NCBI GenBank assembly: GCA_039586795.1
Contig: JBDHJS010000064.1
Location: forward strand, 1 to 32,503
DNA: 32,503 nt
Direction of reading: 5' to 3'
From: Gemmatimonadota bacterium
GTDB taxonomy: Bacteria > Gemmatimonadota > Gemmatimonadetes > Palauibacterales > KS3-K002
In this document: piece after piece, positions 13,748-27,234 of the stretch
Layout of the letters: each line of letters opens with the position of its first letter
Numbering within the stretch: the first letter of the stretch is position 1
Notes under the pieces: model-generated
Database searches by the model: none
The model's input: the letters and a program-made list of their open reading frames with translations, nothing else
Told to the model about the DNA's origin: nothing
Position numbers and translations under genes: made by a program

Positions 13748-15166
13748 TCAGGGTCGGATGATGCTAAAGGGAAGGCTGACCGCGGCGGTGAGCCCCGACG
13801 CCGTGGCGATCAGCGTGTAGCCATCGGCGGGCGCGTCGATCATCAAGTCGGCAAAGAGCGCGACTCCATCCGACGCGGCAACGGAGAGCGTACCGCCCAG
13901 ATGCGCCGGCACGCAAGCGATCGCCTCGCCGTCATCGCCGTCCCCCATCGGAACGATCAGCGTCATCGATGCGTCCGTCTTGTCGACTCGCCACAGCGAT
14001 TCCGGATTCGGCGCTCCATCACCCGTAGCGGCATACAGAGTACCGTTGGGATAGAAGGCGAGGCTGGCGACGCCGTCCTCCGATAGGGTGCCCACGCGGG
14101 TCGCTGACAGAGCGTTCAAGTCAATCGTTACAAGATCGCGCTTCTTGCGGTCCAGATTATCCCGCAGTCTCACGATCGCATACACGGTGCCGTCCGTGGG
14201 ATCGGTGGCGAGCCCGTTGATCCCCAGAACGCTGTCATTCGCGATGTCGAGCGAACCCAGCAGGGTGGCGACCGCCGTCGTCGGGTTCAGCTCGTACAAT
14301 TCGTTCACATGCGGTTGACTCGCCAGCAGACGCCCCGCGCCCCCCTGCTCCCAAGCCAGACCCCGTAGTGGGAGGACCCCGTGGTTCCCTATGGTGCTGA
14401 CGGCTCCGGTCAGCGGGTCGATTTGCAGCAACTCCGTGCCGACATCTACCGCAAGGAGGTTACCTGTCGTCGCGTCTCGTGTCATCCCCGCGATCTCGGA
14501 TTGCGGCGATACCGAAATCGCGGGCAGCACTTCGGGCGTGAGCGGGTCCACGTACTGCAGTACGCGGTTGACCGCGCCGGAACCGCTGGCGTGGAATAGG
14601 ATGGCGCCCGGGTTGTCACCCAAGGCGACGGTCACCATGTCGGCCGCCCCTTCGATGCGATTGCCGAGCTGATCCTGAACCTCAATGACGAAAGCAGCGA
14701 GCGTCGTCCTCGCCGTGTCCGCCACGGGCTGCGCGACAAAGGCCAAATGGTCGGGGGGACCAGGGGTGATGGCGAAGGCCGCACTGGTATCGCGCAGTTC
14801 GCCCAGCGATGCCCACAGCGTGTAACCGGAAGCCGACTTGTCGATGGAGAGGTCGCTGAATGAAGCGATCCCGCCGACCGAGGTCACCTGCGTGGTTCCC
14901 GAAAGCCGACCGCCCCCCGGATTCGCGCCGATCCGTACCGTCACCTCTACGGTCGCGTCCGAGACCCGGCTCCCGTCGGCGCCGAGCAGTTCGACTTGGA
15001 TGGCCGGGGTGATCGTGCTACCGGCCGTTACGTCGGCAGGACCAGTCAGGAACCTGACCTCGGCGAACTCACTACCGGCTCCAGTGGGTGAGTCGCAGGC
15101 AATGAGCATTGCTGCCGCGGCGAATACGCCGACGGCGCGGTGGATCGGTTGGCGGGCCATTCGCAT
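13748..15166 (-). CDS. lipoprotein with two Ig-like domains and an inserted beta-propeller
   Basis: Lipobox 'MLIA|C'. Two homologous 'G(A/D)NPG...L(S/G)GT...F(S/A)DL(S/M)ID...GYTL' units. Propeller-like blades ('GLATDPTDGTVYA', 'SLAFYPNGTLYA'). Start is 15166 or 15160. Confidence 0.8.
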   Translation of the reverse strand: MRMARQPIHRAVGVFAAAAMLIACDSPTGAGSEFAEVRFLTGPADVTAGSTITPAIQVELLGADGSRVSDATVEVTVRIGANPGGGRLSGTTQVTSVGGIASFSDLSIDKSASGYTLWASLGELRDTSAAFAITPGPPDHLAFVAQPVADTARTTLAAFVIEVQDQLGNRIEGAADMVTVALGDNPGAILFHASGSGAVNRVLQYVDPLTPEVLPAISVSPQSEIAGMTRDATTGNLLAVDVGTELLQIDPLTGAVSTIGNHGVLPLRGLAWEQGGAGRLLASQPHVNELYELNPTTAVATLLGSLDIANDSVLGINGLATDPTDGTVYAIVRLRDNLDRKKRDLVTIDLNALSATRVGTLSEDGVASLAFYPNGTLYAATGDGAPNPESLWRVDKTDASMTLIVPMGDGDDGEAIACVPAHLGGTLSVAASDGVALFADLMIDAPADGYTLIATASGLTAAVSLPFSIIRP

Positions 15167-15184
15167 AACGGGTCTACGCAGCCT

Positions 15185-16447
15185 CTAGTCCGCGATCCCT
15201 CGCGGATGACAATCGAGGCATCTGGCGCTGTTGTACTGGTATCCGTTTTCGCCTCTGTGCTTGTCGTCCATTCGGCTCTGACTGTGGGCGTGGCAAGATA
15301 AGCAAGTGAATACGCTGTAGTCGGCCGGGTCTGTGTGACAGTCCGAGCAGCTACCCCACTTGCCTCTATGCTTCCCAGCATAGATGGGGAAGAACTGCGA
15401 GTCGTGATCGAACGTGACCTCGGTCCAGGCGTTCCGCGTGTGGCAGTCCTCACAAGTCGTGGGCGTGCCACCGCCCTGGCCATGCGCCACCGTCCACCTG
15501 TCTTCGTGGCAGGCGAAACAATCGCCATCGCCCTGTGCCTGGAAGAGCGGGGCACCGCCGGTAGGATCGTGACACTTAGTGCAGGCGATGGCGTCATGCC
15601 TCCCGGCTAGCGCGAAGCCGCCCGAAGCCGTCGCGTGATCGAAGCTGGCGTTCGACCAGGGGCCGTCAACCGTGTGACAGTCTGTGCAACCGCTGGTCGG
15701 CAAGCCGGTTCCCGCATGCTGCGCGTCGTAGTCAGATTGGTGACAGGCGATGCAAAGACCCTCGTCATTCGTCTGCCAGATAGGAACGCCGTTGTTCGGG
15801 TCGTGACAGGCCGTGCAGGAGAGGCCCGCGTGCGTGCCGATCAGATCGAAGCCGCCCGACGCCAACCCATGATCGAAGGTAACGTCGAGCCACGGGCCCG
15901 CCGCCGTGTGGCAGTCGCCGCAAGTGGTCGGAATACCGGTGCCGCTGTGCTGTCCGTTGTACTCTGCCTGATGGCAGACGATGCACTCGTTCTCGTTCTT
16001 CGTGTTGAACAGCGGCGCGCCGTTGTTCGCATCGTGACACACAGTGCAGGCGAGCCCGGCGTGCGCACCGACCAGGTCAAAGCCGCCCGAGGCGAAGCCG
16101 TGATCGAACCACACATCCGTCCACGGGCCGTTGACGGTGTGACAGTCCGTGCAGGTCGTTGGGATGCCGGAGCCGGCGTGCGGCCCATTGTAATCGGCCT
16201 GGTGACAGAAGATGCAGTTCGTCTCGTCCTTTGTATTGAACAGCGGCGTTCCATTCGGCTGATGGCAGCCGGTGCAATCCAATTGGTCGTGCGCTCCGAC
16301 AATCTCGAAACCGCCCGAGACCTGCGTGTGATCGAAGGTTGCGCCCGTCCACGTGTCGATGCTGTGACACTGCAGGCAGGTGGTCGGGAAACCGCTGCCC
16401 GAGTGCTGCGTATCATAATCGGCCTGGTGACAGGTGATGCAGTCGTT
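15185..16447 (-). CDS. C-terminal part of a giant multiheme cytochrome c (17 CXXCH), out of frame with its N-terminal part
   Basis: From 'NDCITCH' to 'CLDCHPRGIAD' there are 17 CXXCH in triheme repeats. No signal peptide or credible own start. Confidence 0.85.
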   Translation of the reverse strand, partial: NDCITCHQADYDTQHSGSGFPTTCLQCHSIDTWTGATFDHTQVSGGFEIVGAHDQLDCTGCHQPNGTPLFNTKDETNCIFCHQADYNGPHAGSGIPTTCTDCHTVNGPWTDVWFDHGFASGGFDLVGAHAGLACTVCHDANNGAPLFNTKNENECIVCHQAEYNGQHSGTGIPTTCGDCHTAAGPWLDVTFDHGLASGGFDLIGTHAGLSCTACHDPNNGVPIWQTNDEGLCIACHQSDYDAQHAGTGLPTSGCTDCHTVDGPWSNASFDHATASGGFALAGRHDAIACTKCHDPTGGAPLFQAQGDGDCFACHEDRWTVAHGQGGGTPTTCEDCHTRNAWTEVTFDHDSQFFPIYAGKHRGKWGSCSDCHTDPADYSVFTCLSCHAHSQSRMDDKHRGENGYQYNSARCLDCHPRGIAD

Positions 16448-18200
16448 GGTCGTGGCAGCTCGTACACCCCACCGCCGCATGCGCCCCCAGCAGATCAAAG
16501 CCCTGCGAGACCGCCCCGTGGTCGAAGTCCACCACGCCCCAGCCGTCGTTCGTGTGGCAGTCGAGGCACGTGGTCGGGGTCCCTGATCCCGCGTGTTGCA
16601 GGTCATAGTCGGCCTGATGACAGGTAAGGCAGTCCTCGTGACCCGCCGCGTTGAACAGGGGATTGAAGGTGGTCGGGTCGTGGCAGGACGTACAGGCGGT
16701 CTGTTGGTGTCGACCGAGGAGCGCGAAGCCGCCCGCGATCTGTGCGTGGTCGAACGTGACGTTTGACCAGGGGCCATTCACGCTATGACAGTCTGTGCAG
16801 GTTGTCGGCATGCCGGTGCCGGCATGCTGAATGTCATACTCGGCCTGGTGACAGAACAGGCAGTCCGTCTCGTTCGTGGTGGTGAAGATCGGAGTCCCGT
16901 CCAGCCGATGGCAGGCGAGGCAAGCCAATGAGTCGTGCACGCCGATCAGCGCGAAGCCGCCGGAGACCTGCGCGTGATCGAACGTGACGTTGGACCAGGG
17001 ACCGTCGACGGTGTGACAGTCCGCACATGCGGTCGGTGTGCCGGTGCCGGTGTGTTGAACGTCGTAATCGCTCCGGTGGCAGGTCAGGCAGTCATTCTCG
17101 TCCGTCGGGTGCCAGAACGGCGCGTTGTCGTTGTTGACATCGTGGCAGTTGCTGCACGCCAAAGCCGCATGGGCTCCGATCAAATCGAAGCCGCCCGAGA
17201 CGGTGGCATGGTCAAAGTCGACCACTCCCCAACCTTCATTCGTATGGCAATCCAGGCAGGCGGTTGGGATGCCCGTGCCACCATGTTGCCGCTCGTAGTC
17301 GTCCACGTGGCAGATGAAGCACTGGTTTTGCTTGGCACCTTCGAACAGCGGGGCACCCGTGTTCGCGTCGTGGCAGGACGTACATTCGATCTCCTGGTGG
17401 CGGCCGAGGAGATCGAAGCCGCCGGAGACCGTCGCATGGTCGAAGGACACGCTGTCCCAGGCCACCTGGCTGTGACAGTCGGAGCACGATGTCGGAATCC
17501 CACTGCCCCCGTGGATCGAATCGTAGGCCTCCTGATGACAGGCGATGCAATCGTTCGGGTCGGCCGCGTCCCAATAGGACGCGCCGCCCGGCACATCCAG
17601 CTGGTGACAGGCCTCGCATAGGAGCGGCGCGTGCGCGTCGACCAACGCGTAGCCATCCGACGCTCGCCTGTGGTCGACGCTGACGAGCCCGTGTCTGGCG
17701 TCATCGGGATCGCGGTTCATCAGGTGGCAGGCGGGACAGGTCTGCAAAGGAAAGCCGGTGCTGGAGTGACCCGCAGACTTGTGGCAGCCGCTGCAATAGT
17801 CCTCGAGGATCATCAGGGGATCGACGGTGATGATAGCGCTGTCAGCGCCGCCGGCGGCGCTCGCTACGATGGTGGCGTGGCCGATTCCCCTCGCCCTCAC
17901 CAGGCCGTTACCGTCAGCATCCGCGACCGTCGTGTCGGACGAAGACCACGCGACCTGGGCATCCTCCAGTCGTGAGCCGGTCTTGTCGAACGCGAAGGCG
18001 GTAAGCTGAACCGTGTCGCCGATGCTCGTCAGCATCCCGATCTCCGGCCAGACTTCGACCCGACGGCTTTCTTGCGGTTCGACACCCAAGTCCCCGCAAG
18101 CCTGAAGCGCGACAGCGAGGAGCAATCCGGCCGCGAACCCGCGCAGCCGAAGATGACCTGGGCGAACGGGGTGTTTAATGCGGGTCACCCGACCACTCAT
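16413..18200 (-). CDS. N-terminal part of a giant multiheme cytochrome c lipoprotein: lipobox, Big_2-like Ig domain, 18 CXXCH
   Basis: GGAGGGAG RBS before ATG 18200. Lipobox 'ALQA|C'. Ig motif 'GDTVQLTA...WSSSDTTVA...GLVRARGIG'. The repeat pattern is lost after the 18th heme and the frame stops at 16413. Confidence 0.88.
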   Translation of the reverse strand: MSGRVTRIKHPVRPGHLRLRGFAAGLLLAVALQACGDLGVEPQESRRVEVWPEIGMLTSIGDTVQLTAFAFDKTGSRLEDAQVAWSSSDTTVADADGNGLVRARGIGHATIVASAAGGADSAIITVDPLMILEDYCSGCHKSAGHSSTGFPLQTCPACHLMNRDPDDARHGLVSVDHRRASDGYALVDAHAPLLCEACHQLDVPGGASYWDAADPNDCIACHQEAYDSIHGGSGIPTSCSDCHSQVAWDSVSFDHATVSGGFDLLGRHQEIECTSCHDANTGAPLFEGAKQNQCFICHVDDYERQHGGTGIPTACLDCHTNEGWGVVDFDHATVSGGFDLIGAHAALACSNCHDVNNDNAPFWHPTDENDCLTCHRSDYDVQHTGTGTPTACADCHTVDGPWSNVTFDHAQVSGGFALIGVHDSLACLACHRLDGTPIFTTTNETDCLFCHQAEYDIQHAGTGMPTTCTDCHSVNGPWSNVTFDHAQIAGGFALLGRHQQTACTSCHDPTTFNPLFNAAGHEDCLTCHQADYDLQHAGSGTPTTCLDCHTNDGWGVVDFDHGAVSQGFDLLGAHAAVGCTSCHDQRLHHLSPGRL

Positions 18201-18505
18201 CTCCCTCCAGGAGCGACGTTTGCTAGATAAACAATCTGGGGTGCCTCGATCTGAGGCTCCCCTTTGTAGCAACTTCCAGTCCAATAAGTGAACGCCGGAC
18301 AGATCCGACAGCGGGCCGGGCACTCTGTAAGTCGAATGGCGGGCTAGCGTGGCGGCGAAAGCAGCCCTCGAAGGGGATCTGCGGATCGCAAGATTGTGCT
18401 TAATGTCTGCAACTTTTTCCGTCGGAGTGATCGCGGTCGCCTGACCTCTCGCGCGAAACAAACGCGCCGGCGATAGGGTTTACGGGCCCACGCTCCAGCC
18501 TTGGG

Positions 18506-18522
18506 TTGGCCTATGCTTTGCA
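18506..18522 (+). promoter_or_regulatory. candidate sigma54 (-24/-12) promoter for the rightward cytochrome operon
   Basis: TTGGCCTATGCTTTGCA has GG-N10-GC spacing with TGGC and TTGCA boxes, about 280 bp upstream of the first gene. Confidence 0.5.
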
Positions 18523-18801
18523 GCTTGCTTGGGAATCTCGTTCCCGTGGTGCTGGAGGAGCACATCCGAAGTAAGGAGGGGAGATCAGTCTTTCGCGCCT
18601 GGATTGATCCCATCTCGGCCAGTTCGGCGCCAGGGCTGATCAAAAGAAAAGACCTATCGGGTGAGCCAGCGGTTGCCAGGAGCGTGTAGCGAATCGATAC
18701 AACTGACGCGATGCGCAACACCTGCTGTGGGGCAGCAGGTGTGAGCGGAACCCACCGGTCGCGTGCGAGAGCACAATTAGCCATAGCTTGAGAGCTGGAG
18801 C

Positions 18802-20214
18802 GTGACTTCACAAGCAACCGTGTTTGATGTTACCAACGTCGACTTATTGAACGGCAAGCTCGTCCTGCGAATCACGGAGAACCGTCCCTGGCAGCAGATC
18901 GACGTGATGCATCGCGAGCTGGGTGCTAAGGTCAAGGCGTGCGTTCGGTACATTCGCAGCCAGGATTTTGCCGACGAGTACAACGCCAGGCCCGGCGATG
19001 CCGTCATTCGCCTGGTCGCCGCCGAGCGGCCCGCAGAGGCTACGCGCGAGCTGCTCCAGCGTATTCGCTACGAGCTGGCGAAGCACGATATCGAGTTCGA
19101 GTGTACCGTCGCCGGCCGGCGGGCTACCCCTCTCTCGGCGGCCGCCGACCCGAATCTCGCGCCATCACCGAAGTCGCAGAACGGAAACGGTAGATCGAGA
19201 TTGGTGGCCGACGTGAGCACCGCGACGCGCATTGTAGCGGTTCAGACTGAGGCGCCGCCGGCGCCTCGCGAGCGGGAGCGACCGGCCGCACCGGAGCGGG
19301 TGGAGAAGGCCACCGTCGCCCGGCCGGCCACGATCACCGCGCCCCGTCGGTCGCGGACGGAAGCGTTCGTTCGGATTGTCCTGTTGGCGACCTGGCTGGC
19401 GGTCGCCGGCCCAGCCACGCTGTGGGGACTCGAGTACTACCTGACGCCCATCCAGGAGCGGGCGTACTCCGAGCTCCACGAGATATTCAAGCCCAGCGGT
19501 ACGGTCGGGATCTTGTACGGCACCGTTGGCAGCGTGATGATCGTCATCGGCACGGCGATGTACTCGCTGCGCAAGCGGTTTCGGTTTCTCCAGAAAGCCG
19601 GCCGGCTCACCGGCTGGCTTCAGTTCCATATCTTCCTGTGCACACTGGGACCGTACCTCGTCTTGCTGCACTCCAGCTTCAAGTTCGCTGGCGTCGCGGG
19701 CTTCGCTTTCTGGAGCATGGTCGCCGTAGCCGCGAGCGGCGTGCTGGGACGGTACCTCTTCGCGCACATCCCCGGGACCATTAACAGTCGACGTGCCTTG
19801 GTCCTTGACCTGGAGAGGCAGCAGAAAGCGATCGTCGGCGCTTATGCTGGGAATGGACGCGTCAAGACCGATGCTCTGGATCAGGCCCTCGCGCTTGGGC
19901 GTCAACGCACGCCCAAGGGGCTCCTACACGCCTTCGTTGTCGGCATTCGCAACGACCTGACCGGACGCTGGCTCAAGCGAAAGATCAAACGCCGCCTGGC
20001 TTTGCTCGGGATGACGGCGGTTGATCGGGAGCGCGTCACAACGCTCGTTTTGGAGCAGATCGAACTAAAGCGTCGTGTTGCGCTGCTCGAGCCATTCCAA
20101 AGGATGTTCGCCTACTGGCACGTCGTGCACTTGCCGATGTCGACCGTGATGTGCGTGTCCGTATGCTTGCACATCATCATCGCGGTGCTTTTCGGGTACG
20201 CAAACTTCTTCTAG
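18802..20214 (+). CDS. inner-membrane protein with His-bearing TM helices (cytochrome b/ferric-reductase-like), fused to an N-terminal DUF6572-like domain
   Basis: About 5 hydrophobic segments. Motifs 'YSLRKR', 'WLQFHIF', 'LVLLHSSFKF', 'SGVLGRYLF' and 'YWHVVHLP...CLHI'. GTG start is uncertain. Confidence 0.75.
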   Translation: MTSQATVFDVTNVDLLNGKLVLRITENRPWQQIDVMHRELGAKVKACVRYIRSQDFADEYNARPGDAVIRLVAAERPAEATRELLQRIRYELAKHDIEFECTVAGRRATPLSAAADPNLAPSPKSQNGNGRSRLVADVSTATRIVAVQTEAPPAPRERERPAAPERVEKATVARPATITAPRRSRTEAFVRIVLLATWLAVAGPATLWGLEYYLTPIQERAYSELHEIFKPSGTVGILYGTVGSVMIVIGTAMYSLRKRFRFLQKAGRLTGWLQFHIFLCTLGPYLVLLHSSFKFAGVAGFAFWSMVAVAASGVLGRYLFAHIPGTINSRRALVLDLERQQKAIVGAYAGNGRVKTDALDQALALGRQRTPKGLLHAFVVGIRNDLTGRWLKRKIKRRLALLGMTAVDRERVTTLVLEQIELKRRVALLEPFQRMFAYWHVVHLPMSTVMCVSVCLHIIIAVLFGYANFF

Positions 20215-20225
20215 TGGCAGCTGAC

Positions 20226-20822
20226 ATGAAGCGATTGATTCCGACAATATCCGCCGTTGTCGCGGCGACCGCTTTTCTCCTCGCGATCTACCTGAGCGCG
20301 GGCGATCGGGTGCGCGCTGCACCGGGGGTGGGCGGCCGTGTGAGTTCCAGCTCGGGGATCGCGGCGCTCGACCCACTGGCGGAGCCAAGCCAGAGCAATG
20401 TGAGCGCGGGTTATCATGCCCAATTGGAGACGTTGAAGCTTCGCCTCGCCGCATCGCCGAACGATACCGCGCTACTCATGCGCACAGCCCGACTGCTCGA
20501 CGATGCGCACCAGCCGGACGCGGCCGCCACTTACTACGAGCGGTACCTGGCGGTCGATCCTCACAACAGGCAGGCGTGGCTGGACGTCGCCAGCGCTTAC
20601 GCGGCGCTGGGTCGTTGGGAGGACGCTCTCGAGGCAACGCAATCGGTATTGGACATGGACCCCGACGACTTGACGGCCATGTACAACCTGGGAGCGATCT
20701 ACGCCAACATGGGGAAGTACGAGGAAGCGCGCAGCTGGTGGGAGAGAGTGGGAGATCATGCCGACAGCTCGCTGGCCGATAGAGCGGCGGCCTCGCTCGC
20801 TAGACTCCCGAATCGATCCTGA
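20226..20822 (+). CDS. exported or membrane-anchored TPR protein
   Basis: N-terminal hydrophobic helix. TPRs 'YYERYLAVDPHNRQAWLDVASAY' and 'AMYNLGAIYANMGKYEEARSWW'. Stop overlaps the next ATG. Confidence 0.85.
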   Translation: MKRLIPTISAVVAATAFLLAIYLSAGDRVRAAPGVGGRVSSSSGIAALDPLAEPSQSNVSAGYHAQLETLKLRLAASPNDTALLMRTARLLDDAHQPDAAATYYERYLAVDPHNRQAWLDVASAYAALGRWEDALEATQSVLDMDPDDLTAMYNLGAIYANMGKYEEARSWWERVGDHADSSLADRAAASLARLPNRS

Positions 20823-22363
20823 TGATCCATGGCTACCGAGGCGGCGGCCGCGGTCGGGCTGCCGGGCATCGCATTCGTTCGTTGCTGATGGTTGCCGGCT
20901 TGCTCACGGCGGTGCTCACCTCGACCCGCGACAGCCACGGCCAGTTCATCTCTCCTGGCAAGTTGGCGAAGTCTCACGCGAACGATGCGCACCTGAACGG
21001 AATAACGAATTGCACGAAATGCCACGAGCTCCGCAGTCCCGGCGCGGCTCGAGACAAGTGTCTGGAGTGTCACGTTCCAATGCGGAACCGGTTGAACGAG
21101 CGGCTAGGGCTACACTCGACGTTCGAGGAAGAGGATTGTGGCGCGTGTCACAAGGACCATTTCGGCGCCGATTTCGACATGGTTCGGTTCGACACGGCCA
21201 GCTTCGAGCATAACGAGAAGACCGACTATGAGCTGGTGGATAGCCATGCCGAGGCCGAGTGCCGGAGCTGCCACAAGGCGGACCTGGTCGAGGCGGAGGA
21301 CGTGCGCGATTTCAAGGGCGAGCATGGAGCGTTGGACAGGACGTGGCTGGGACTGGGAACGACCTGCAACGGATGTCACTCGCCGGAGACCCCTCACGAG
21401 GGTCAATTCGGGGACAGCAGCTGCGATGAGTGTCACGCGGTGACCACCTGGGAGGAAGCGGCGTCGTTCGATCACGATCAATCACGGTTCCGACTCCTCG
21501 GTAAACACCGCGATGTAGCCTGCGAGGATTGCCACAAACCGCTCCGCAATGCCCAGCGTGAGAAGTATGTCCAGTACGTTCAGATGGAATTCGATCTTTG
21601 CCAGGACTGTCATGAAGATGAACACGAAGGTAAGCGCGGGAACGACTGCACGGAATGTCACGTCAACTCCGGCTGGCATCGTATCCGGCGCGAGACTTTC
21701 GAAGAGGGTTGGGATCATTCCCTCACCGAATTCGAGTTGGTGGGCCACCACGCGGAAGCCGAGTGCTCAACCTGTCACGGGAAGCCGCCCAAGCGAGACG
21801 AAGAGATCGATGTCCGTTTCGTGGTAACCACGCTCGATTTCACCTATCCGCGTCCGGTAGCCGAGGATTGTGTCTCCTGTCACCGTGACTACCACCGCGG
21901 AGTGTTCGAAGATTCACTAGGTGGAATCGTATGTGACGACTGCCACAGTGAGCACGATTGGCTTCCCGTCGATTACGATGTCGAACGCCACAACGAGCAA
22001 TCGCCCTTCGCATTGGAGGGCGCGCACGTCACGACTCCCTGCAATCTCTGTCACCCGGAACCGGATGACGGGCAGGAAGCGGCGCAGTTCACGATCGAGA
22101 AGCAGGACTGCGTGAGTTGCCACGCGGAAGATGAGCCTCACCAGGATCAGTTCACCGACCGGCCGTGTGAGGATTGCCACGATAGCCGCGCGTTTCTCAT
22201 CCCCGACTACGATCACTCCCAGACAGAGTTTCCCCTCGACGGCAAGCACCAGGACGTCCCGTGCGCCTCCTGCCATCCGGAAGAGTCTGATGCTGGCGGG
22301 GACCCCGTCGTCCGTTACAAACCCCTGGACTACGAGTGCAGGGACTGCCACAGGGGCGACTGA
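20822..22363 (+). CDS. periplasmic multiheme cytochrome c (c3/c7-like), 17 CXXCH
   Basis: Signal peptide then 'QFISPGKLAKSH'. 17 CXXCH with recurring 'FDH...FxLxGxH' distal His motifs. Strongly acidic. TGATG coupling at both ends. Confidence 0.92.
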   Translation: MIHGYRGGGRGRAAGHRIRSLLMVAGLLTAVLTSTRDSHGQFISPGKLAKSHANDAHLNGITNCTKCHELRSPGAARDKCLECHVPMRNRLNERLGLHSTFEEEDCGACHKDHFGADFDMVRFDTASFEHNEKTDYELVDSHAEAECRSCHKADLVEAEDVRDFKGEHGALDRTWLGLGTTCNGCHSPETPHEGQFGDSSCDECHAVTTWEEAASFDHDQSRFRLLGKHRDVACEDCHKPLRNAQREKYVQYVQMEFDLCQDCHEDEHEGKRGNDCTECHVNSGWHRIRRETFEEGWDHSLTEFELVGHHAEAECSTCHGKPPKRDEEIDVRFVVTTLDFTYPRPVAEDCVSCHRDYHRGVFEDSLGGIVCDDCHSEHDWLPVDYDVERHNEQSPFALEGAHVTTPCNLCHPEPDDGQEAAQFTIEKQDCVSCHAEDEPHQDQFTDRPCEDCHDSRAFLIPDYDHSQTEFPLDGKHQDVPCASCHPEESDAGGDPVVRYKPLDYECRDCHRGD

Positions 22364-23442
22364 TGCGTGGAACGCCAGCCCTAGCTCTCAGCTTGCTGCT
22401 ACTGGCCGTTTGGGTCGACACGGCGTCGCCACAGGAGACGGCCACGCGCAGCCCGCACGGCGAGTTGACTCAGAATATTGATTGCAGTGCTTGTCACACG
22501 CCGGACGGCTGGTCTCCTGTGAGAGACGTGATGGACTTCGAGCACGACGACGACACGAGCTTTCCCCTCGTCGGTCGTCATCAGGATGCCGGTTGCGGCG
22601 GTTGCCATCTCGGCTTGCGCTTCGATGAGCCTAGGGTAGGCCCCAGCGACTGCGGCGCCTGCCACGTCGATGTGCACCTCGGGAATCTCTCGGATAACTG
22701 CGCCGGCTGTCACAACGAGGTGTCCTATAATGATGTGGCCGGCGTGTCGATCCACACCCGGACCGCGTTTCCGCTCACCGGCGCCCATCTCCAGTTGACG
22801 TGCGAGAGCTGCCACGTCGATGATCGCGGCAGCGCGTACAGCCCGTTGGACTCGGACTGTTTCTCTTGTCACGCCGCGGACTATGAGGATGCCCAGTCGC
22901 TGGACCACACGGCCCTGGCGTTCTCCACCACCTGCGAGGAGTGCCACAATACGTTGGGCTGGGGTGGTGGCCCGTTCAATCACCTCGCCGCCTCCGGCAG
23001 TTTCGACCTCGTCGGGACCCATACGATCATTCGCTGCGAGGCCTGCCATGTCATGCCGGGGCTCGCGCTGAAGTACCAGCCCGCCGGCCAGAACGATTGC
23101 CTTACCTGCCACGAGCAAGACTACCAGCGTAAGCACGCGGGCAGTGGCTTTCCCACCGAGTGTCTCAACTGCCACGACCAGAACAGCTGGGGTGGGGCCG
23201 TGATCGTCGCGGCGCAGCACGACGCCATCTTCCCCATCTTCTCCGGCCCGCACCAGGGGAAATGGAACAACGACTGCAGCGTCTGTCACATCGTCCCGAA
23301 CAACCAGCAGGTCTTCAGCTGTTTGAACTGTCACCAGCATTCTCAAGCCCGAATGAACGACGCGCACAATGAGGTGGGCGGCTACAGCTACATCAGCACG
23401 CTGTGCTACGAATGCCATCCGAGGGGAAGAAGTGACGACTAA
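22363..23442 (+). CDS. exported multiheme cytochrome c, 13 CXXCH
   Basis: ATG 22363 overlaps the previous TGA. Signal peptide, then 'SPHGEL' and 13 CXXCH. Ends 'CYECHPRG'. Confidence 0.92.
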   Translation: MRGTPALALSLLLLAVWVDTASPQETATRSPHGELTQNIDCSACHTPDGWSPVRDVMDFEHDDDTSFPLVGRHQDAGCGGCHLGLRFDEPRVGPSDCGACHVDVHLGNLSDNCAGCHNEVSYNDVAGVSIHTRTAFPLTGAHLQLTCESCHVDDRGSAYSPLDSDCFSCHAADYEDAQSLDHTALAFSTTCEECHNTLGWGGGPFNHLAASGSFDLVGTHTIIRCEACHVMPGLALKYQPAGQNDCLTCHEQDYQRKHAGSGFPTECLNCHDQNSWGGAVIVAAQHDAIFPIFSGPHQGKWNNDCSVCHIVPNNQQVFSCLNCHQHSQARMNDAHNEVGGYSYISTLCYECHPRGRSDD

Positions 23443-25016
23443 TGGGTAACTGGGCGGACAGGACCTCGGTCAGGCTGATCTCAACAGCCGTATCGCTCAT
23501 CGTTCTGGGTCTGTTCGCTTCGTCGGCGAACGCACAGGTGCAGCGGCTGAGCGTCGTGGTGGAATACATCGCCGGCGCCACACTCTACATCGATGCGGGC
23601 ACGGAGCAGGGGATTAGCGCCGAAGACACGATTTACGTCTACGACCCAGGCGATGGGACGTTCAAGGGGAGCCTTCGGGTGCTGGAAAGTTCGAGCGGCC
23701 GGTCGGTGCTCACATTTGCCGGCCAGCCCTTCGGCATCACGCGGGGCGATGTCCTGGAGGTCTCGTTCGTGGCGGCCACACTTCCTGCAGAGGCCGATGC
23801 CCCGGTCCAGTCGGAGTACATACCGGCGACGCGAGCCCAGCCCCTTCAGGTCCACGGGCGTCTTTCGCTTAGCGTCAGCGCGCTGCAGTCGACGACCCAG
23901 GGTAGAGTCGTGGGTATAGAGCCGATCGACCGCACGTTCACAACGCCGACGGCCCGCCTGAGACTGGACGTTGCCCATCTGCCGGGCGACATCACGTTTC
24001 GAACAAACCTGCGGAGCGCTACGCGCTTCAGCTCTGAGGACCTGATTCAGCCGCCCCAGTCGTTCCGCATCTATCAGATGAGTCTGGAGCGGAGCTTCCA
24101 GAGCTTCCCGCTTTTCGTTCGGCTCGGAAGGTTCTACAGCCCCTACGAGCGATACAGCGGCTATTGGGACGGCTTGCTCGTTCGGGTGGGCCGAGAAGAT
24201 GGATTTGGAGCCGGCGTCGCTGCCGGTTTCCAGCCTGACCTGCTGAACGAGGAGCTCAATACAGAGCGGCCCAAGTACAGCGCATTCCTCAACTACAGGG
24301 CCGCCGGCCGGGGCGTCGGGTACCGGGCCGACGCCTCCGTTCATCACATTCGATCCAATACCGATCTTGTCGAGAGCACCTACGCCGGGCTGTCGCAGCG
24401 CTTGCGGCTGGGGAGATGGCTGCTAACTCAGGATCTCCAGGTCGACCGCGACGCTTCCGCCGGAACCTGGAGAATATCGCGCCTGCAAGTCAGCACATCC
24501 GTACCTCTGCACCGGAGTGCGGAATTGTACGCGCGGTACTCGCTGCGGCGCCCCTCGCTATCGCCGCTCGACACCCTGGTTGCCCAGCAGCGCCAGCAGG
24601 CCGGAGGCGGTCTGATCTTTCGGGCCTGGAGCGGCAGCATCAGCGGCGACGTGACCCTAACACGTCTGGAACATGGCGAAACGAGCTACAGCTACTCGTC
24701 GTTCTTCAGTTTCCCACGCACCGCTTTGTGGAACCTCGGTTTCAGCGCCTCGGCCAACTATTGGACGCAGACTGCCGCGAACACGCTGTACCTGTCCGGT
24801 GGACTCAGTCGGTACTTCGGGCGGGCCCAGGTAAGAGCTTTCTATCACCGATACATCACCGAGAGCATGGGGATGAGCCTGGTGACACAAGGGGGAGAGC
24901 TCGCCCTCGCCGTACCGCTCAGCCGGCGCCTCTTCTCGACGCTGCGAGCCGTCATCTCGCGGAGCGCCAACTTGACCAGCAACAGTCTGGACGCGCAGTT
25001 GGGGATGACGTTCTGA
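23442..25016 (+). CDS. putative outer-membrane beta-barrel (porin) with a small N-terminal beta domain
   Basis: Signal peptide ending 'SANA|Q'. Alternating hydrophobic strands rich in aromatic residues, Ser, Gly and Arg. Terminal 'LDAQLGMTF' with C-terminal Phe. TAATG/TGATG overlaps. Confidence 0.78.
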   Translation: MGNWADRTSVRLISTAVSLIVLGLFASSANAQVQRLSVVVEYIAGATLYIDAGTEQGISAEDTIYVYDPGDGTFKGSLRVLESSSGRSVLTFAGQPFGITRGDVLEVSFVAATLPAEADAPVQSEYIPATRAQPLQVHGRLSLSVSALQSTTQGRVVGIEPIDRTFTTPTARLRLDVAHLPGDITFRTNLRSATRFSSEDLIQPPQSFRIYQMSLERSFQSFPLFVRLGRFYSPYERYSGYWDGLLVRVGREDGFGAGVAAGFQPDLLNEELNTERPKYSAFLNYRAAGRGVGYRADASVHHIRSNTDLVESTYAGLSQRLRLGRWLLTQDLQVDRDASAGTWRISRLQVSTSVPLHRSAELYARYSLRRPSLSPLDTLVAQQRQQAGGGLIFRAWSGSISGDVTLTRLEHGETSYSYSSFFSFPRTALWNLGFSASANYWTQTAANTLYLSGGLSRYFGRAQVRAFYHRYITESMGMSLVTQGGELALAVPLSRRLFSTLRAVISRSANLTSNSLDAQLGMTF

Positions 25017-26335
25017 TGGATATCCCGGCGATTCCTACCTGGCTCATCTGTGCCGCCGTGCTGTTCGTCGCCTGCGCGCCGTTCCTTTGGGCTTATCGCC
25101 GGCGCGAGCGCAAGACGCGTGAAGCGGAACTGGAAGCCGAGAAGTACGGCTTGAAGGAGCCGGCCACCCTACACCCCATCGTCGACCCGAACCGCTGCAT
25201 CGGTATTGGCAACTGCGCCAAGGTCTGTCCCGAGCCGGACGTGCTCGGCATGCGCGCCGGCCAGGCGATCGCCGTGGCTCCCGCTCGCTGCATTGGCCAC
25301 GGGCTGTGCGAGCGGGTCTGCCCGGTCGACGCGATTCAGCTCGTGTTCGGAACCGCGACGCGTGGCGTGGACATCCCGCGCGTGAAGGAGAACTTCGAGA
25401 CCAACGTGCCGGGCATCTATATCATCGGTGAGTTGGGCGGGATGGGGCTGATCCACGCCGCGTTCGAGCAGGGCCGTCAGGTGATCGATGGAATCAGCAA
25501 AGAAAAGAGATCCGGACCGGCTGATGCCCTCGACGTCCTTATAGTAGGCTGTGGCCCCGGCGGCTTGTCCGCGTCACTGAGCTGTCTGCAAAGCAAGTTG
25601 AAGTTCGTCACCATCGACAAGGAGGAAGCCATCGGGGGCGCCGTCCGGCACTACCCCCGCAAGAAGCTGGTGATGACGTACCCGGTGAAGATCCCCGGGT
25701 ACGGAAGGATCCGCATCCGCGAGATACAAAAGGAGCAACTGATCAAGCTATGGGAGGATGTTGCTGTCAAAGTCGGGCTGAAGGTGAACACGGGCGAAAC
25801 GGTGCGCGATGTGAAGCGGCAGCCGGGCGGCGGTTTCCAGGTCATCACCGACAAAGCAACCTACAAAACCCAGCGCGTGATCCTCGCCATCGGTCGCCGC
25901 GGTATACCCAGGAAACTGAACGTACCCGGAGAGGATTCGCCGAAGGTCGCCTACGCTCTCAAGGAGCCGGAGCTGTACCAAAACGACAATATCGTCGTGG
26001 TCGGGGGCGGTGACTCCGCCGTCGAGGCCGCCCTGGCGCTCTCCGAGCAGCCGGGCAACACCGTTCGGCTCTCTTATCGGAAGGATCGTTTCTCCCGCAT
26101 CAAGCCGATGAACCACCAGCGGATAGAAAGCGCGATCTCGCAACGCCGAATCGAGCCTCTGTGGTCGACCAGCCTGAGGGTGATCGAGCCGGACGCCGTG
26201 GTCTACGGGAACGGCGGCAGCGACACGGTGCGAATTGCCAACGACTACGTCTTCGTCTTCATCGGCGGCGAGCTACCCACCAATTTCCTCAAGTCCTGCG
26301 GCATTCAGATCGACACCAAGTTCGGCCAACCTTGA
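25016..26335 (+). CDS. membrane-anchored ferredoxin-domain plus FAD/NAD(P)-binding oxidoreductase (thioredoxin-reductase-like fold)
   Basis: N-terminal TM helix. Fe-S motifs CIGIGNCAKVCP and CIGHGLCERVCP. 'IVGCGPGG' FAD motif and 'VVGGGDSAVEAA...SYRK' NAD(P) motif. No CXXC redox disulfide in the reductase part. Confidence 0.9.
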   Translation: MDIPAIPTWLICAAVLFVACAPFLWAYRRRERKTREAELEAEKYGLKEPATLHPIVDPNRCIGIGNCAKVCPEPDVLGMRAGQAIAVAPARCIGHGLCERVCPVDAIQLVFGTATRGVDIPRVKENFETNVPGIYIIGELGGMGLIHAAFEQGRQVIDGISKEKRSGPADALDVLIVGCGPGGLSASLSCLQSKLKFVTIDKEEAIGGAVRHYPRKKLVMTYPVKIPGYGRIRIREIQKEQLIKLWEDVAVKVGLKVNTGETVRDVKRQPGGGFQVITDKATYKTQRVILAIGRRGIPRKLNVPGEDSPKVAYALKEPELYQNDNIVVVGGGDSAVEAALALSEQPGNTVRLSYRKDRFSRIKPMNHQRIESAISQRRIEPLWSTSLRVIEPDAVVYGNGGSDTVRIANDYVFVFIGGELPTNFLKSCGIQIDTKFGQP

Positions 26336-26369: not shown

Positions 26370-26789
26370 CTAGCGGCGCGACTCGGCTAGGATCGGATTG
26401 AGGACGAGGCTGGGGACGCGCTCGAAGTGTCGCACGTTCCCGGTCACGAGCTCCAATCCGTGATAGATCGCTGCCGCCGCGATCTGTAGGTCGGCATCGG
26501 CCAGCGGCGCTCCCTGGTCCTCTAAGCGGGCGCGAATCTGACCGAAGACCTTGGCGACAGCGGTGTCGAAGGGCAGGGCGGTGACCGCCGCGAGGACGCG
26601 CTCCTCGATATTGGCCAGGTGGCGGTCCCGCGCTTTCGAACGAAACGCCCCGGCGTACAGCTCGCCAACGCAGACGGCGCTAGTGTACTGCTCCTCTCTC
26701 GGCACGCTCTTCAGCCAGGCCAGGTACTCCGGCGCTGGCCGCGGCCGCAACGTCTCCGAGATCGCATCGGTGTCGAACAGGTAGGCCAT
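26370..26789 (-). CDS. vapC: type II TA toxin, PIN domain (VapC family)
   Basis: 'YLFDTDAISE...SAVCVGEL...DADLQIAAAA...LVTGNVRHF'. Start at ATG 26789, 2 nt after the antitoxin stop. Confidence 0.92.
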   Translation of the reverse strand: MAYLFDTDAISETLRPRPAPEYLAWLKSVPREEQYTSAVCVGELYAGAFRSKARDRHLANIEERVLAAVTALPFDTAVAKVFGQIRARLEDQGAPLADADLQIAAAAIYHGLELVTGNVRHFERVPSLVLNPILAESRR

Positions 26790-26791
26790 GG

Positions 26792-27070
26792 CTAGTCGAG
26801 TGGTTCCGCCGGGCGGCGGCCCCGCCGAACCAACTCCTCGATCCGGCGGACCAGCTCGTCCGAACCTTCCCAGCCGCCCGCCAGGCTGGCCAGACCGCCC
26901 TCCGGCCCTGCCGCCCGCAGCCGCTCCAACTGCTCCACGTCCGCCGCTGGTACCAGCGCGGCCACCGGCTGGCCGTGCCGGGTGATGAGCACGGGCTCGC
27001 CGTTTTCGACCAGGCGGATCCAGTGGGAGAAAGTGGCCTTTGCCTCCGCTATGGGTACGGTCCTGGACAT
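26792..27070 (-). CDS. type II TA antitoxin, Phd/YefM family
   Basis: GGAG RBS. 'VPIAEAKATFSHWIRLVENGEPVLITRHGQPVAALVP'. Confidence 0.92.
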   Translation of the reverse strand: MSRTVPIAEAKATFSHWIRLVENGEPVLITRHGQPVAALVPAADVEQLERLRAAGPEGGLASLAGGWEGSDELVRRIEELVRRGRRPAEPLD

Positions 27071-27102
27071 GGGCACTCCAGCTCGTAAAGGCGTTCTTCG
27101 CA

Positions 27103-27154
27103 ATCTGACCATTCTGACTATTTTGACTATAATCATCCGAGCTCCCTTCCGCAA
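27103..27154 (-). promoter_or_regulatory. promoter and triple 9-bp direct-repeat operator of the phd-vapC operon
   Basis: Minus strand TTGCGG-17bp-TATAGT. Repeats TAGTCAAAA / TAGTCAGAA / TGGTCAGAT (27103-27129) overlap the -10 and start region. Confidence 0.65.
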
Positions 27155-27234
27155 CCGGCTGTCCTAGCTGCGACACCCGGAAGAAACATGCGATCAAGGC
27201 GGCAACGGATTGTCATCCTCGGATGGCAGCGGTC

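Follow-up and report, generated by a model that had tools for sequence, protein, structure and literature searches.

The DNA analysed here, referred to as the window, is an entire 32,503-bp contig from the genome of an uncultured member of the Gemmatimonadota from sediment (assembly of 4.68 Mb in 107 contigs, 97.8% complete). Positions 13748-26335 carry two gene sets pointing apart, which encode three multiheme cytochromes c (MHCs), a predicted outer-membrane barrel, an inner-membrane protein (IMP), and a membrane-anchored Fe–S flavoprotein with a ferredoxin-like domain, termed FdFAD. As judged from its gene content and motifs, the locus belongs to the PCC3 kind of cluster already described in Proteobacteria; the link with FdFAD, a predicted NAD(P)H-type enzyme that is nearly always encoded together with one subfamily of the IMPs, is the part that appears to be unreported. 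The features of the locus are as follows:

18802-20214, plus strand: IMP, inner-membrane protein, 470 aa, with five transmembrane (TM) helices, SGxxG and two WX3HX13H motifs
20226-20822, plus strand: TPR protein, 198 aa, with an N-terminal signal or anchor and matches to several TPR Pfam families
20822-22363, plus strand: MHC17, 17-heme cytochrome c, 513 aa, 17 CxxCH motifs
22363-23442, plus strand: MHC13, 13-heme cytochrome c, 359 aa, with a Sec signal, 13 CxxCH motifs
23442-25016, plus strand: predicted outer-membrane barrel, 524 aa, with a Sec signal, AlphaFold2 (AF2) model and C-terminal Phe
25016-26335, plus strand: FdFAD, membrane-anchored Fe–S flavoprotein, 439 aa, Pfam Pyr_redox_3 and Fer4 matches
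15185-18200, minus strand: MHC35 lipoprotein, lipobox LQAC, Big_2 domain, 18 + 17 CxxCH motifs over two open reading frames (ORFs)
13748-15166, minus strand: lipoprotein, 472 aa, lipobox LIAC, with a DUF6923 repeat (DUF6923 match)

The rightward set runs in the order IMP, TPR protein, MHC17, MHC13, barrel, FdFAD, and the leftward set consists of MHC35 followed by the DUF6923 lipoprotein. A previous reading of this DNA, made from the letters only (the sequence-only reading), had listed this gene set, and all nine of its reading frames are present where it placed them. Its total of 65 c-type hemes is reproduced by the CxxCH count (17 + 13 + 18 + 17), and the stop–start overlaps that it reported for the last five rightward genes can be read at all four junctions, i.e. 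TGATG at TPR/MHC17, MHC17/MHC13 and barrel/FdFAD, and TAATG at MHC13/barrel. The statement that no NapC/NirT or NrfD-type gene is present also agrees with the present analysis, neither family having a match among the 23 ORFs scanned in the window.

The IMP comprises an N-terminal soluble domain, a low-complexity linker and a five-TM domain of ~290 aa (~residues 185–470); its AF2 model has five helices (pLDDT 90.4). The sequence motifs are W272-x3-H276-x13-H290 on TM3, SGVLG (residues 312–316) on TM4 and W439-x3-H443-x13-H457 on TM5. Among 63 aligned members H276, H290, W439, H443 and two Gly residues are invariant and H457 is retained in 62; the alignment has four conserved His residues and no conserved Cys pair. 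With this pattern the IMP likely binds two b-type hemes. Its predicted topology follows the positive-inside rule, because basic residues are placed accordingly before TM1, between TM2 and TM3, and in a 120-residue helical loop before TM5. The family is large (2395 representative clusters at E ≤ 1e-3) and is without a Pfam family, a below cut-off match of residues 1–110 to DUF6572 being the only Pfam signal; the ESM Atlas gave only unnamed clusters from Acidobacteriota and Gemmatimonadota, and a PDB sequence search gave no match. The extra DUF6572-like domain is found in the closest relatives only (P0171, P0321), and a stand-alone DUF6572-like copy, 46% identical, is present elsewhere in the same genome (C81:19987-20307).

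The resemblance to PCC3, which was defined in Alpha-, Beta- and Gammaproteobacteria by He, Barco, Emerson & Roden in 2017 (PMC5566968), is extensive. According to the part of that paper available to us, PCC3 has four components: a porin, a periplasmic MHC with a median of 21 hemes, an extracellular MHC with a median of 34, and an IMP of ~300 aa that is recognisable by its five TM helices, by SGXXG on TM4 and by a WX3HX13H motif on each of TM3 and TM5. All three features occur in the IMP of the window, a comparison made with the published proteobacterial proteins by description only. In both cases the barrel gene lies beside the cytochrome genes, a periplasmic MHC of ~20 hemes is encoded (in the window a predicted one, with 17 hemes), and the cytochromes are repetitive with a low number of residues per heme. 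Where the published clusters have a very large second MHC, the window has a 13-heme protein in the syntenic position and a separate, divergently encoded 35-heme paralogue. The published clusters are four-gene units with a quinone-linked model and proteobacterial hosts, and their porins have up to 42 predicted TM regions (PMC5566968, in part); the window, in a gemmatimonadotal host, adds genes for the TPR protein, FdFAD, the 35-heme lipoprotein and the DUF6923 lipoprotein, its IMP has an additional ~180-aa N-terminal DUF6572-like part, and its barrel has 22 predicted strands. On these sequence features the locus is a member or variant of the described PCC3 kind, and the claim that it might represent a new class of system is not upheld (PMC5566968). 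The term "PCC3 architecture" in a 2026 Nat Commun paper means something else.

Later work, as far as the accessible text extends, has treated PCC3 as a four-gene, functionally unverified complex (a survey of the Gallionellaceae, PMC9900912; a preprint on Sideroxydans sp. CL21). The available portions of these two sources and of PMC5566968 do not mention a flavoprotein, there are no occurrences of "ferredoxin" or "thioredoxin reductase" in He et al. (PMC5566968), and a literature search, which did not extend to the supplements of He et al., gave no paper tying PCC3 or its IMP to a flavoprotein or NAD(P)H enzyme. A published hint of Fe–S partners for such IMPs can be seen in PCC4 subgroup II, where (in the accessible part of PMC5566968) an IMP with the same set of motifs is preceded directly upstream by a gene for an Fe–S protein (pfam13247), the two being annotated as a single gene in one genome. 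PCC4, unlike the window, has three periplasmic MHCs and no extracellular MHC, pfam13247 is described without mention of a flavin domain, and the IMPs of PCC3 and PCC4 are reported to have no significant overall sequence homology (PMC5566968).

FdFAD combines two types of domain. It matches Pyr_redox_3 (PF13738; E 1.5e-44, 152.9 bits against a cut-off of 30) and, also above cut-off, Pyr_redox_2 and the 4Fe-4S dicluster families Fer4_21, Fer4_2 and Fer4. The nearest NCBIfam model is YpdA, at 169.2 bits below its cut-off of 339.9, and the nearest PDB sequences are YpdA/Bdr, thioredoxin reductase (TrxR) and TrxR-type ferredoxin–NADP+ reductases (FNRs) (7a7b, 7a76, 3lzw, 5ygq; E 1.9e-28 to 1e-11). 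The predicted fold is TrxR/YpdA-like, with FAD and NAD(P)H domains and an NADPH-type motif; the two-dinucleotide-fold architecture and this motif are shared with the TrxR-type FNRs and YpdA/Bdr, to which FdFAD adds a TM anchor and a fused ferredoxin-like domain. Since the single N-terminal helix (residues 6–24) is followed by an Arg/Lys run (RRRERK, the basic run being conserved in 40 aligned relatives), the catalytic part is predicted by the positive-inside rule to face the cytoplasm; there is no Tat motif in FdFAD.

In the alignment of 40 FdFAD sequences, six Cys residues, R355 and R361 are identical throughout, and GxGxxG (G178, G180, G183) and GGGDSA (330–335) are listed as invariant columns. 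The ferredoxin-like motifs (residues 61–102) are CxxIxxCxxxCP and CxxHxxCxxxCP. The position of the second Cys is occupied in motif 2 by His95, which is His in 39/40, and in motif 1 by Ile, where 12/40 have Cys. The assignment of an Fe–S/FAD, NAD(P)-binding enzyme thus holds with respect to the Pyr_redox_3 and Fer4 domains, but the canonical eight-Cys 2x[4Fe-4S] pattern is replaced by six invariant Cys plus a His. There is probably one three-Cys cluster and one Cys3His cluster, and the variation in motif 1 suggests a [3Fe-4S]/[4Fe-4S] switch between lineages. A His-ligated Fe–S cluster is a typical exit site for electrons. The flavin domain contains no CxxC motif and Cys179 is kept in only 16/40, the active-site Cys of YpdA being thus not conserved, and for these reasons FdFAD is read as an NAD(P)H:Fe–S electron transferase, rather than as a disulfide reductase.

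The distribution of FdFAD relative to the IMP is striking. In a set of 41 genomes from the family or order of the source genome, itself among them, FdFAD and the IMP are each present in four, and these are the same four, in which the two genes flank a MHC17–MHC13–barrel module (in one, G024, the pieces are on three short contigs). A profile search of 301 Gemmatimonadota genomes found the IMP in 65, FdFAD in 67 and both in 63; the two genomes with IMP only have weak matches (E 1.5e-24 and 6e-13), and of the four with FdFAD only, at least one has its match at a contig end and another has a partial match. The genes can be adjacent and codirectional (G049:C19), adjacent and divergent (G065:C79) or, as in the window, ~5 kb apart (G097:C11). 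In a gammaproteobacterial sample (400–401 genomes of the class of G325, with G577 unscored), FdFAD is present in 43 of the 47 genomes in which the IMP match is strong (E ≤ 1e-30), and six genomes have FdFAD without an IMP match.

A scan seeded with FdFAD, taking one genome per species, gave 52 loci, of which 46 with at least 250 aligned residues were kept; those left out were two loci with a split or cut match, both with an IMP beside it, and four fragments or unrelated sequences. The hosts of the 46 loci are Gemmatimonadota, Bacteroidota (Cytophagia, Chryseolinea, Rhodothermales), Calditrichaceae, Gammaproteobacteria, Thermodesulfobacteriota, Acidobacteriota (Terriglobia, Bryobacterales, Thermoanaerobaculia), KSB1, Zixibacteria and Ignavibacteria. 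An IMP gene is present in 35/46, within ~320 bp of the FdFAD gene in 25 and within 7.3 kb in the rest, and several of the loci lacking one have very short flanks. At least one frame with six or more CxxCH motifs is found in 39/46, typically a cytochrome of 17–23 hemes followed by one of 12–83 hemes. The expectation that the reductase and membrane protein would co-occur with such cytochromes elsewhere is thus borne out in relatives, within the phylum and across phyla: one IMP subfamily is almost always paired with FdFAD, and more distant IMPs are not. A mirror-tree comparison of IMP and FdFAD (r 0.75, Mantel 0.001, 26 loci plus the window) was given no weight; MHC17 correlates equally well with both proteins, and the correlation is uninformative because shared species ancestry explains it.

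The three cytochromes have 25–32 residues per heme and match cytochrome c7/c3-type families. MHC17 (30 aa per heme; Cytochrome_C7, c3 and MtrC-domain Pfam matches) aligns over nearly its full length, at 28–38% identity, with the first cytochrome (17–23 hemes) of loci in other phyla; these counterparts include 21-heme proteins of gammaproteobacterial metagenome-assembled genomes, whose loci with 21-heme MHCs match at 24–28% identity. By this alignment MHC17 appears to correspond to the "periplasmic MHC" that PCC3-type clusters encode, and a periplasmic site is accordingly predicted for it. The MHC13 gene occupies the slot of the second large cytochrome, directly before the barrel gene. MHC13 is 36% identical to the C-terminal 330 aa of MHC35, and both MHC13 and the C-terminal third of MHC35 align to the C-terminal part of the second, large cytochrome in other loci; from the latter alignment it can be proposed that MHC13 is a short form in the syntenic slot of the "extracellular MHC". 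By sequence, MHC35 is a divergently encoded paralogue of MHC13. The same MHC13/MHC35 layout is found in an 86%-identical cluster of a relative (G014).

MtrCAB of Shewanella and MtoAB/PioAB share with the window the idea of one cytochrome held in an outer-membrane barrel and a lipoprotein cytochrome on the outer side. The similarity does not extend to family level: MHC17 scores 44.5 bits with the DmsE/MtrA model TIGR03508 (cut-off 192.2), to which MHC13 has no match, and the window barrel has no Pfam or NCBIfam match that would place it in the MtrB/PioB family, MtrB being a generic large-barrel structural neighbour only. MtrCAB is fed from quinol by CymA, a protein of the NapC/NirT family, for which, as described above, the window has no candidate. 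To our knowledge, all characterised extracellular electron transfer routes of diderm bacteria start at the quinol pool (CymA, ImcH, CbcL etc.).

The constancy of the pairing with FdFAD suggests that the heme wire of the present cluster is likely to be fed from NAD(P)H, and not from quinol. In the proposed path, NAD(P)H would reduce the FAD of FdFAD at the cytoplasmic face of the inner membrane, and electrons would then cross the two Fe–S clusters of FdFAD, one with three Cys ligands and the other with three Cys and His95. They would pass next to a cytoplasm-side b-heme (H276/H443) and a periplasm-side b-heme (H290/H457) in the IMP, from there to MHC17 as a 17-heme periplasmic wire, to MHC13, which may be threaded in or docked on the barrel, and finally to the MHC35 lipoprotein at the surface. 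Heme binding by the IMP, the NAD(P)H specificity of FdFAD and the surface location of MHC35 are parts of this scheme that we infer. Much the same wiring was set out in the sequence-only reading; it fits the gene content and the observed conservation, although the electron steps themselves are deduced. We assign about even odds (a probability of roughly 0.5) to the overall reading, i.e. a PCC3-type cluster in which electrons move from a cytoplasm-facing, NAD(P)H-type FdFAD, via a two-heme IMP and 65 c-type hemes, to the cell surface. The broader proposal, that FdFAD–IMP is the missing inner-membrane entry to PCC3, a split, NOX-like and quinone-independent module found in at least eight phyla, by which bacteria of sediments and soils could discard reducing power onto minerals or partners with no need of a respiratory chain, is tentative and falls somewhat short of an even chance.

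The proposed entry step resembles that of NOX, STEAP and MsrQ, in which, as predicted for the window, a cytoplasmic NAD(P)H flavoenzyme donates electrons to a membrane protein with His pairs 13 residues apart on TM3 and TM5. These proteins have six helices, as opposed to five in the IMP, and their electron donors are a dehydrogenase of FNR type or Fre, as opposed to the TrxR/YpdA-like Fe–S protein FdFAD; the IMP has no match to the ferric reductase domain PF01794 at E ≤ 0.01. MsrQ is informative in that, according to the part of the source available, its electrons come from an NADH oxidoreductase of the cytosol and go on to MsrP in the periplasm (PMC12525009). It thus provides a precedent for an NADH oxidoreductase feeding a heme membrane protein that serves a periplasmic partner, the acceptor in the window being a multiheme wire instead.

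Several points weigh against NAD(P)H-fed export to the surface. Foldseek with the IMP model identified no solved fold at E ≤ 0.001, and the best VIA match (Z 9.4) involved short helical pieces and was unspecific; diheme bundles gave Z 7.6 (5oc0) and Z 7.5 (4o6y), below the level trusted for helical proteins. Because there is no significant fold match, it is the His pattern that argues for heme binding by the IMP. The co-occurrence counts span related genomes, which are not independent events. A search for longer IMP-domain proteins revealed no FdFAD–IMP fusion (in itself weak evidence), the only two longer proteins being DUF6572–IMP forms like that of the window. The MHC17–MHC13–barrel module is present without IMP and FdFAD in six other relatives, and as second copies in two genomes (loci with the module and lacking the pair, L016-L020, are at G014:C69, G024:C345, G012:C1:3676900-3681228, G009:C35 and G020:C67); the outer part is therefore separable and can work with another donor. 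In the gammaproteobacterial sample, FdFAD is found in 0/20 genomes with a weak IMP match (one of them, G368, unpublished), and the IMP fold as such is therefore independent of the flavoprotein; this FdFAD-less kind may include the PCC3 clusters published for iron oxidisers. A surface location is assumed, by analogy, for both MHC13 and MHC35, and the MHC35 gene is out of frame in the window. Finally, the function of PCC3 has been called experimentally untested (PMC9900912; Sideroxydans CL21 preprint; both in part).

The break in the MHC35 gene was unmentioned in the sequence-only reading, whose description of a 35-heme lipoprotein otherwise agrees with the 35 CxxCH motifs and the lipobox (LQAC); a Big_2 domain is also present. 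In the window, MHC35 consists of two minus-strand ORFs in different frames, at 16413-18461 with 18 CxxCH motifs and at 15185-16777 with 17. The upstream ORF, whose part of the protein includes the Big_2 domain (Pfam, E 4.2e-7), ends in "...CTSCHDQRLHHLSPGRL*", and the heme repeats resume in the other frame as "...TTNDCITCHQ". Public contigs from runs X1 and X17, both of one study, bridge 16447/16448 with 41 extra letters, and since 41 mod 3 is 2, which is the shift needed, the frames are rejoined; the ~14 added codons restore the 21-residue spacing from the last heme of the first ORF to the first of the second. X1 is possibly the source sample, and the bridging in X1 and X17 is therefore not fully independent evidence. 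MHC35 is built of three-heme units of ~77 aa with heme spacings of 21, 21 and 34–35 residues, its DNA has a 231-nt tandem period, and the 41-base gap sits inside a repeat. It is probable that the 41 nt were lost within the repeat by assembly collapse or in a deletion variant, and that the gene break is not natural; an intact MHC35 would have ~1018 residues and 35 hemes. Parts of 15100-18500 are without contig cover in some runs, assemblies here being fragmented by the repeat, and this was not counted as a finding. One RNA run contained 0.09 of the words of the MHC35 gene, which was counted as no evidence of expression.

The main competitor to entry from NAD(P)H is a quinol-fed PCC3. Here the IMP would act as a diheme cytochrome b that reacts with quinone and exchanges electrons with the menaquinone pool, and FdFAD would be an accessory, e.g. 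in redox sensing, repair or poising of the hemes. Such an IMP is precisely what He et al. proposed, from a His pattern that they noted to resemble the ferric-reductase domain of NOX (PMC5566968, available part), and this too counts against entry from NAD(P)H; moreover, the functional analogue MsrQ has been found to bind ubiquinone (PMC12525009, in part), and the 20 weaker IMP relatives manage without FdFAD. However, FdFAD accompanies the IMP in 63/65 and 43/47 IMP-bearing genomes, usually as the adjacent gene, its membrane anchor and invariant Fe–S domain would be costly for a mere accessory, and evidence for a quinone site in the IMP is wanting. Quinol feeding of the present cluster is, in our view, unlikely.

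The flow is probably outward, with electrons being disposed of or respired onto Fe(III)/Mn(IV) minerals, humics or partner cells. This direction is favoured for two reasons: NAD(P)H (~-320 mV) is a strong reductant, more negative than most acceptors, and a membrane potential that is negative inside helps electrons to leave the cell. The route builds no proton gradient, and thus looks like one for electron disposal or redox balancing, or one operating alongside other respiratory routes. The opposite direction, in which electrons from extracellular Fe(II), minerals or a cathode would pass via the IMP to FdFAD and so generate NAD(P)H, has in its favour that flavoproteins of the FdFAD class are reversible in principle, that PCC3 was discovered in Fe(II) oxidisers (PMC5566968), and that in Sideroxydans sp. 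CL21 the gene for the PCC3 IMP increased along with iron-oxidation activity (preprint; both sources in part). The couples of Fe(II), however, should lie far above NAD(P)+/NAD(P)H, uptake would work against the inside-negative potential, and no energy-coupling device is encoded at the locus. Inward operation is accordingly rather improbable, and the statement that the path could run in either direction, which would involve flow to NAD(P)+ against both redox and membrane potential, is not retained.

The case for transfer across the outer membrane depends on the barrel. Its AF2 model (41 sequences; pLDDT 78.5, pTM 0.70) has 22 antiparallel strands at residues 136–523, preceded by the signal peptide, a small β-domain (36–108) and a disordered linker, and the sequence ends in Phe. 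The VIA matches are headed by 22-strand TonB-dependent transporters (BtuB, Z 17.3, 363 aligned, rmsd 4.1) and include MtrB (6r2q_B, Z 13.4, 336 aligned); Foldseek ranked the usher FimD first, and the protein has no Pfam, NCBIfam or PDB sequence match. The anticipated barrel fold of the 524-aa protein is therefore supported at the level of a model, in the size class of the TonB-dependent transporters. Known barrels of comparable size hold a plug domain of ~150 residues or let folded pilins through, so that a slim multiheme domain could plausibly fit into the predicted lumen. The barrel entry for the window's own sequence in the database, P0121, has 445 aa, suggesting a later start; relatives of 513–530 aa span all 524 aa including the small N-terminal β-domain, in place of which two distant relatives have an AMIN domain.

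It is conceivable that the cytochromes instead form a periplasmic sink, storing charge or reducing soluble periplasmic substrates, and that the barrel imports or exports something else. This would suit a barrel of 22 strands, as against 26 in MtrB, and the N-terminal β-domain, modelled with low pLDDT, could be a plug. On the other hand, the barrel gene is translationally coupled between those for MHC13 and FdFAD, the barrel is syntenic with the two cytochromes in 10/41 relatives and detectable (by tblastn) in 12/46 of the distant FdFAD-seeded loci, and MHC35 is a lipoprotein, as are MtrC and OmcB. Confinement of the electrons to the periplasm is considered very unlikely.

The TPR protein matches TPR_CcmH_CycH below cut-off (E 7.8e-5), has tblastn relatives in 7/48 FdFAD-seeded loci tabulated, and may possibly be a CcmI/CycH-like apocytochrome chaperone or assembly factor. 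That FdFAD and the IMP might themselves serve maturation, exporting reducing power to keep the CxxCH thiols of apocytochromes or the heme iron reduced, would be in line with this weak CcmH/CycH-TPR similarity and with the 13 to 35 attachment sites per cytochrome, but is hardly credible given that DsbD/CcdA thiol-reducing routes use cysteines, not hemes, that the IMP has no conserved Cys pair and that the same cytochromes are assembled in relatives lacking both IMP and FdFAD. Cytochrome c maturation, on which the sequence-only reading depended, is by System I, the genes for which are present in the genome: CcmE adjoins a 715-aa CcmF-like frame and there are two further CcmC/CcsA-type frames, ResB (System II) being not found in the genome.

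PCC3 is widespread, yet its inner-membrane step is a guess, and the identification of FdFAD as a partner makes electron entry to PCC3 a directly testable hypothesis. If FdFAD does feed the IMP, the published quinone-linked, iron-oxidising model of PCC3 would need revision for this large subfamily, and a simple biochemical target of three proteins, FdFAD, IMP and MHC17, would be available. For Gemmatimonadota, Acidobacteriota, Bacteroidota and other groups, a means of re-oxidising NAD(P)H in sediments and soils would be predicted, with minerals, humics or partner cells taking the electrons, and the module would constitute a natural NAD(P)H-to-electrode wire of bioelectrochemical interest.

The lipoprotein at 13748-15166, a putative Ig/propeller protein in the sequence-only reading, matches DUF6923 (E 8e-7, 29.5 bits against a cut-off of 27) and is single copy in the genome; it is possibly a surface partner or an adhesin. 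A PIN-domain (VapC-like) gene (26370-27197, minus strand) lies immediately downstream of the cluster in the opposite orientation; in the listed ORF its N-terminus is extended by a long Gly/Arg-rich stretch, probably untranslated. MacB-PCD/FtsX-type ABC permease genes (5977-8430 and 29070-31847, both minus strand) flank the region and seem unrelated to the cluster, such large permease genes being common in Gemmatimonadota and Acidobacteriota; a DUF5916 protein and a TPR membrane protein are, like the PIN-domain protein, further unrelated flank products. Genome-wide there are 38 open frames with at least four CxxCH motifs, and other islands of multiheme cytochromes occur on contigs C53, C79, C80 and C97, with frames of up to 21 CxxCH motifs.

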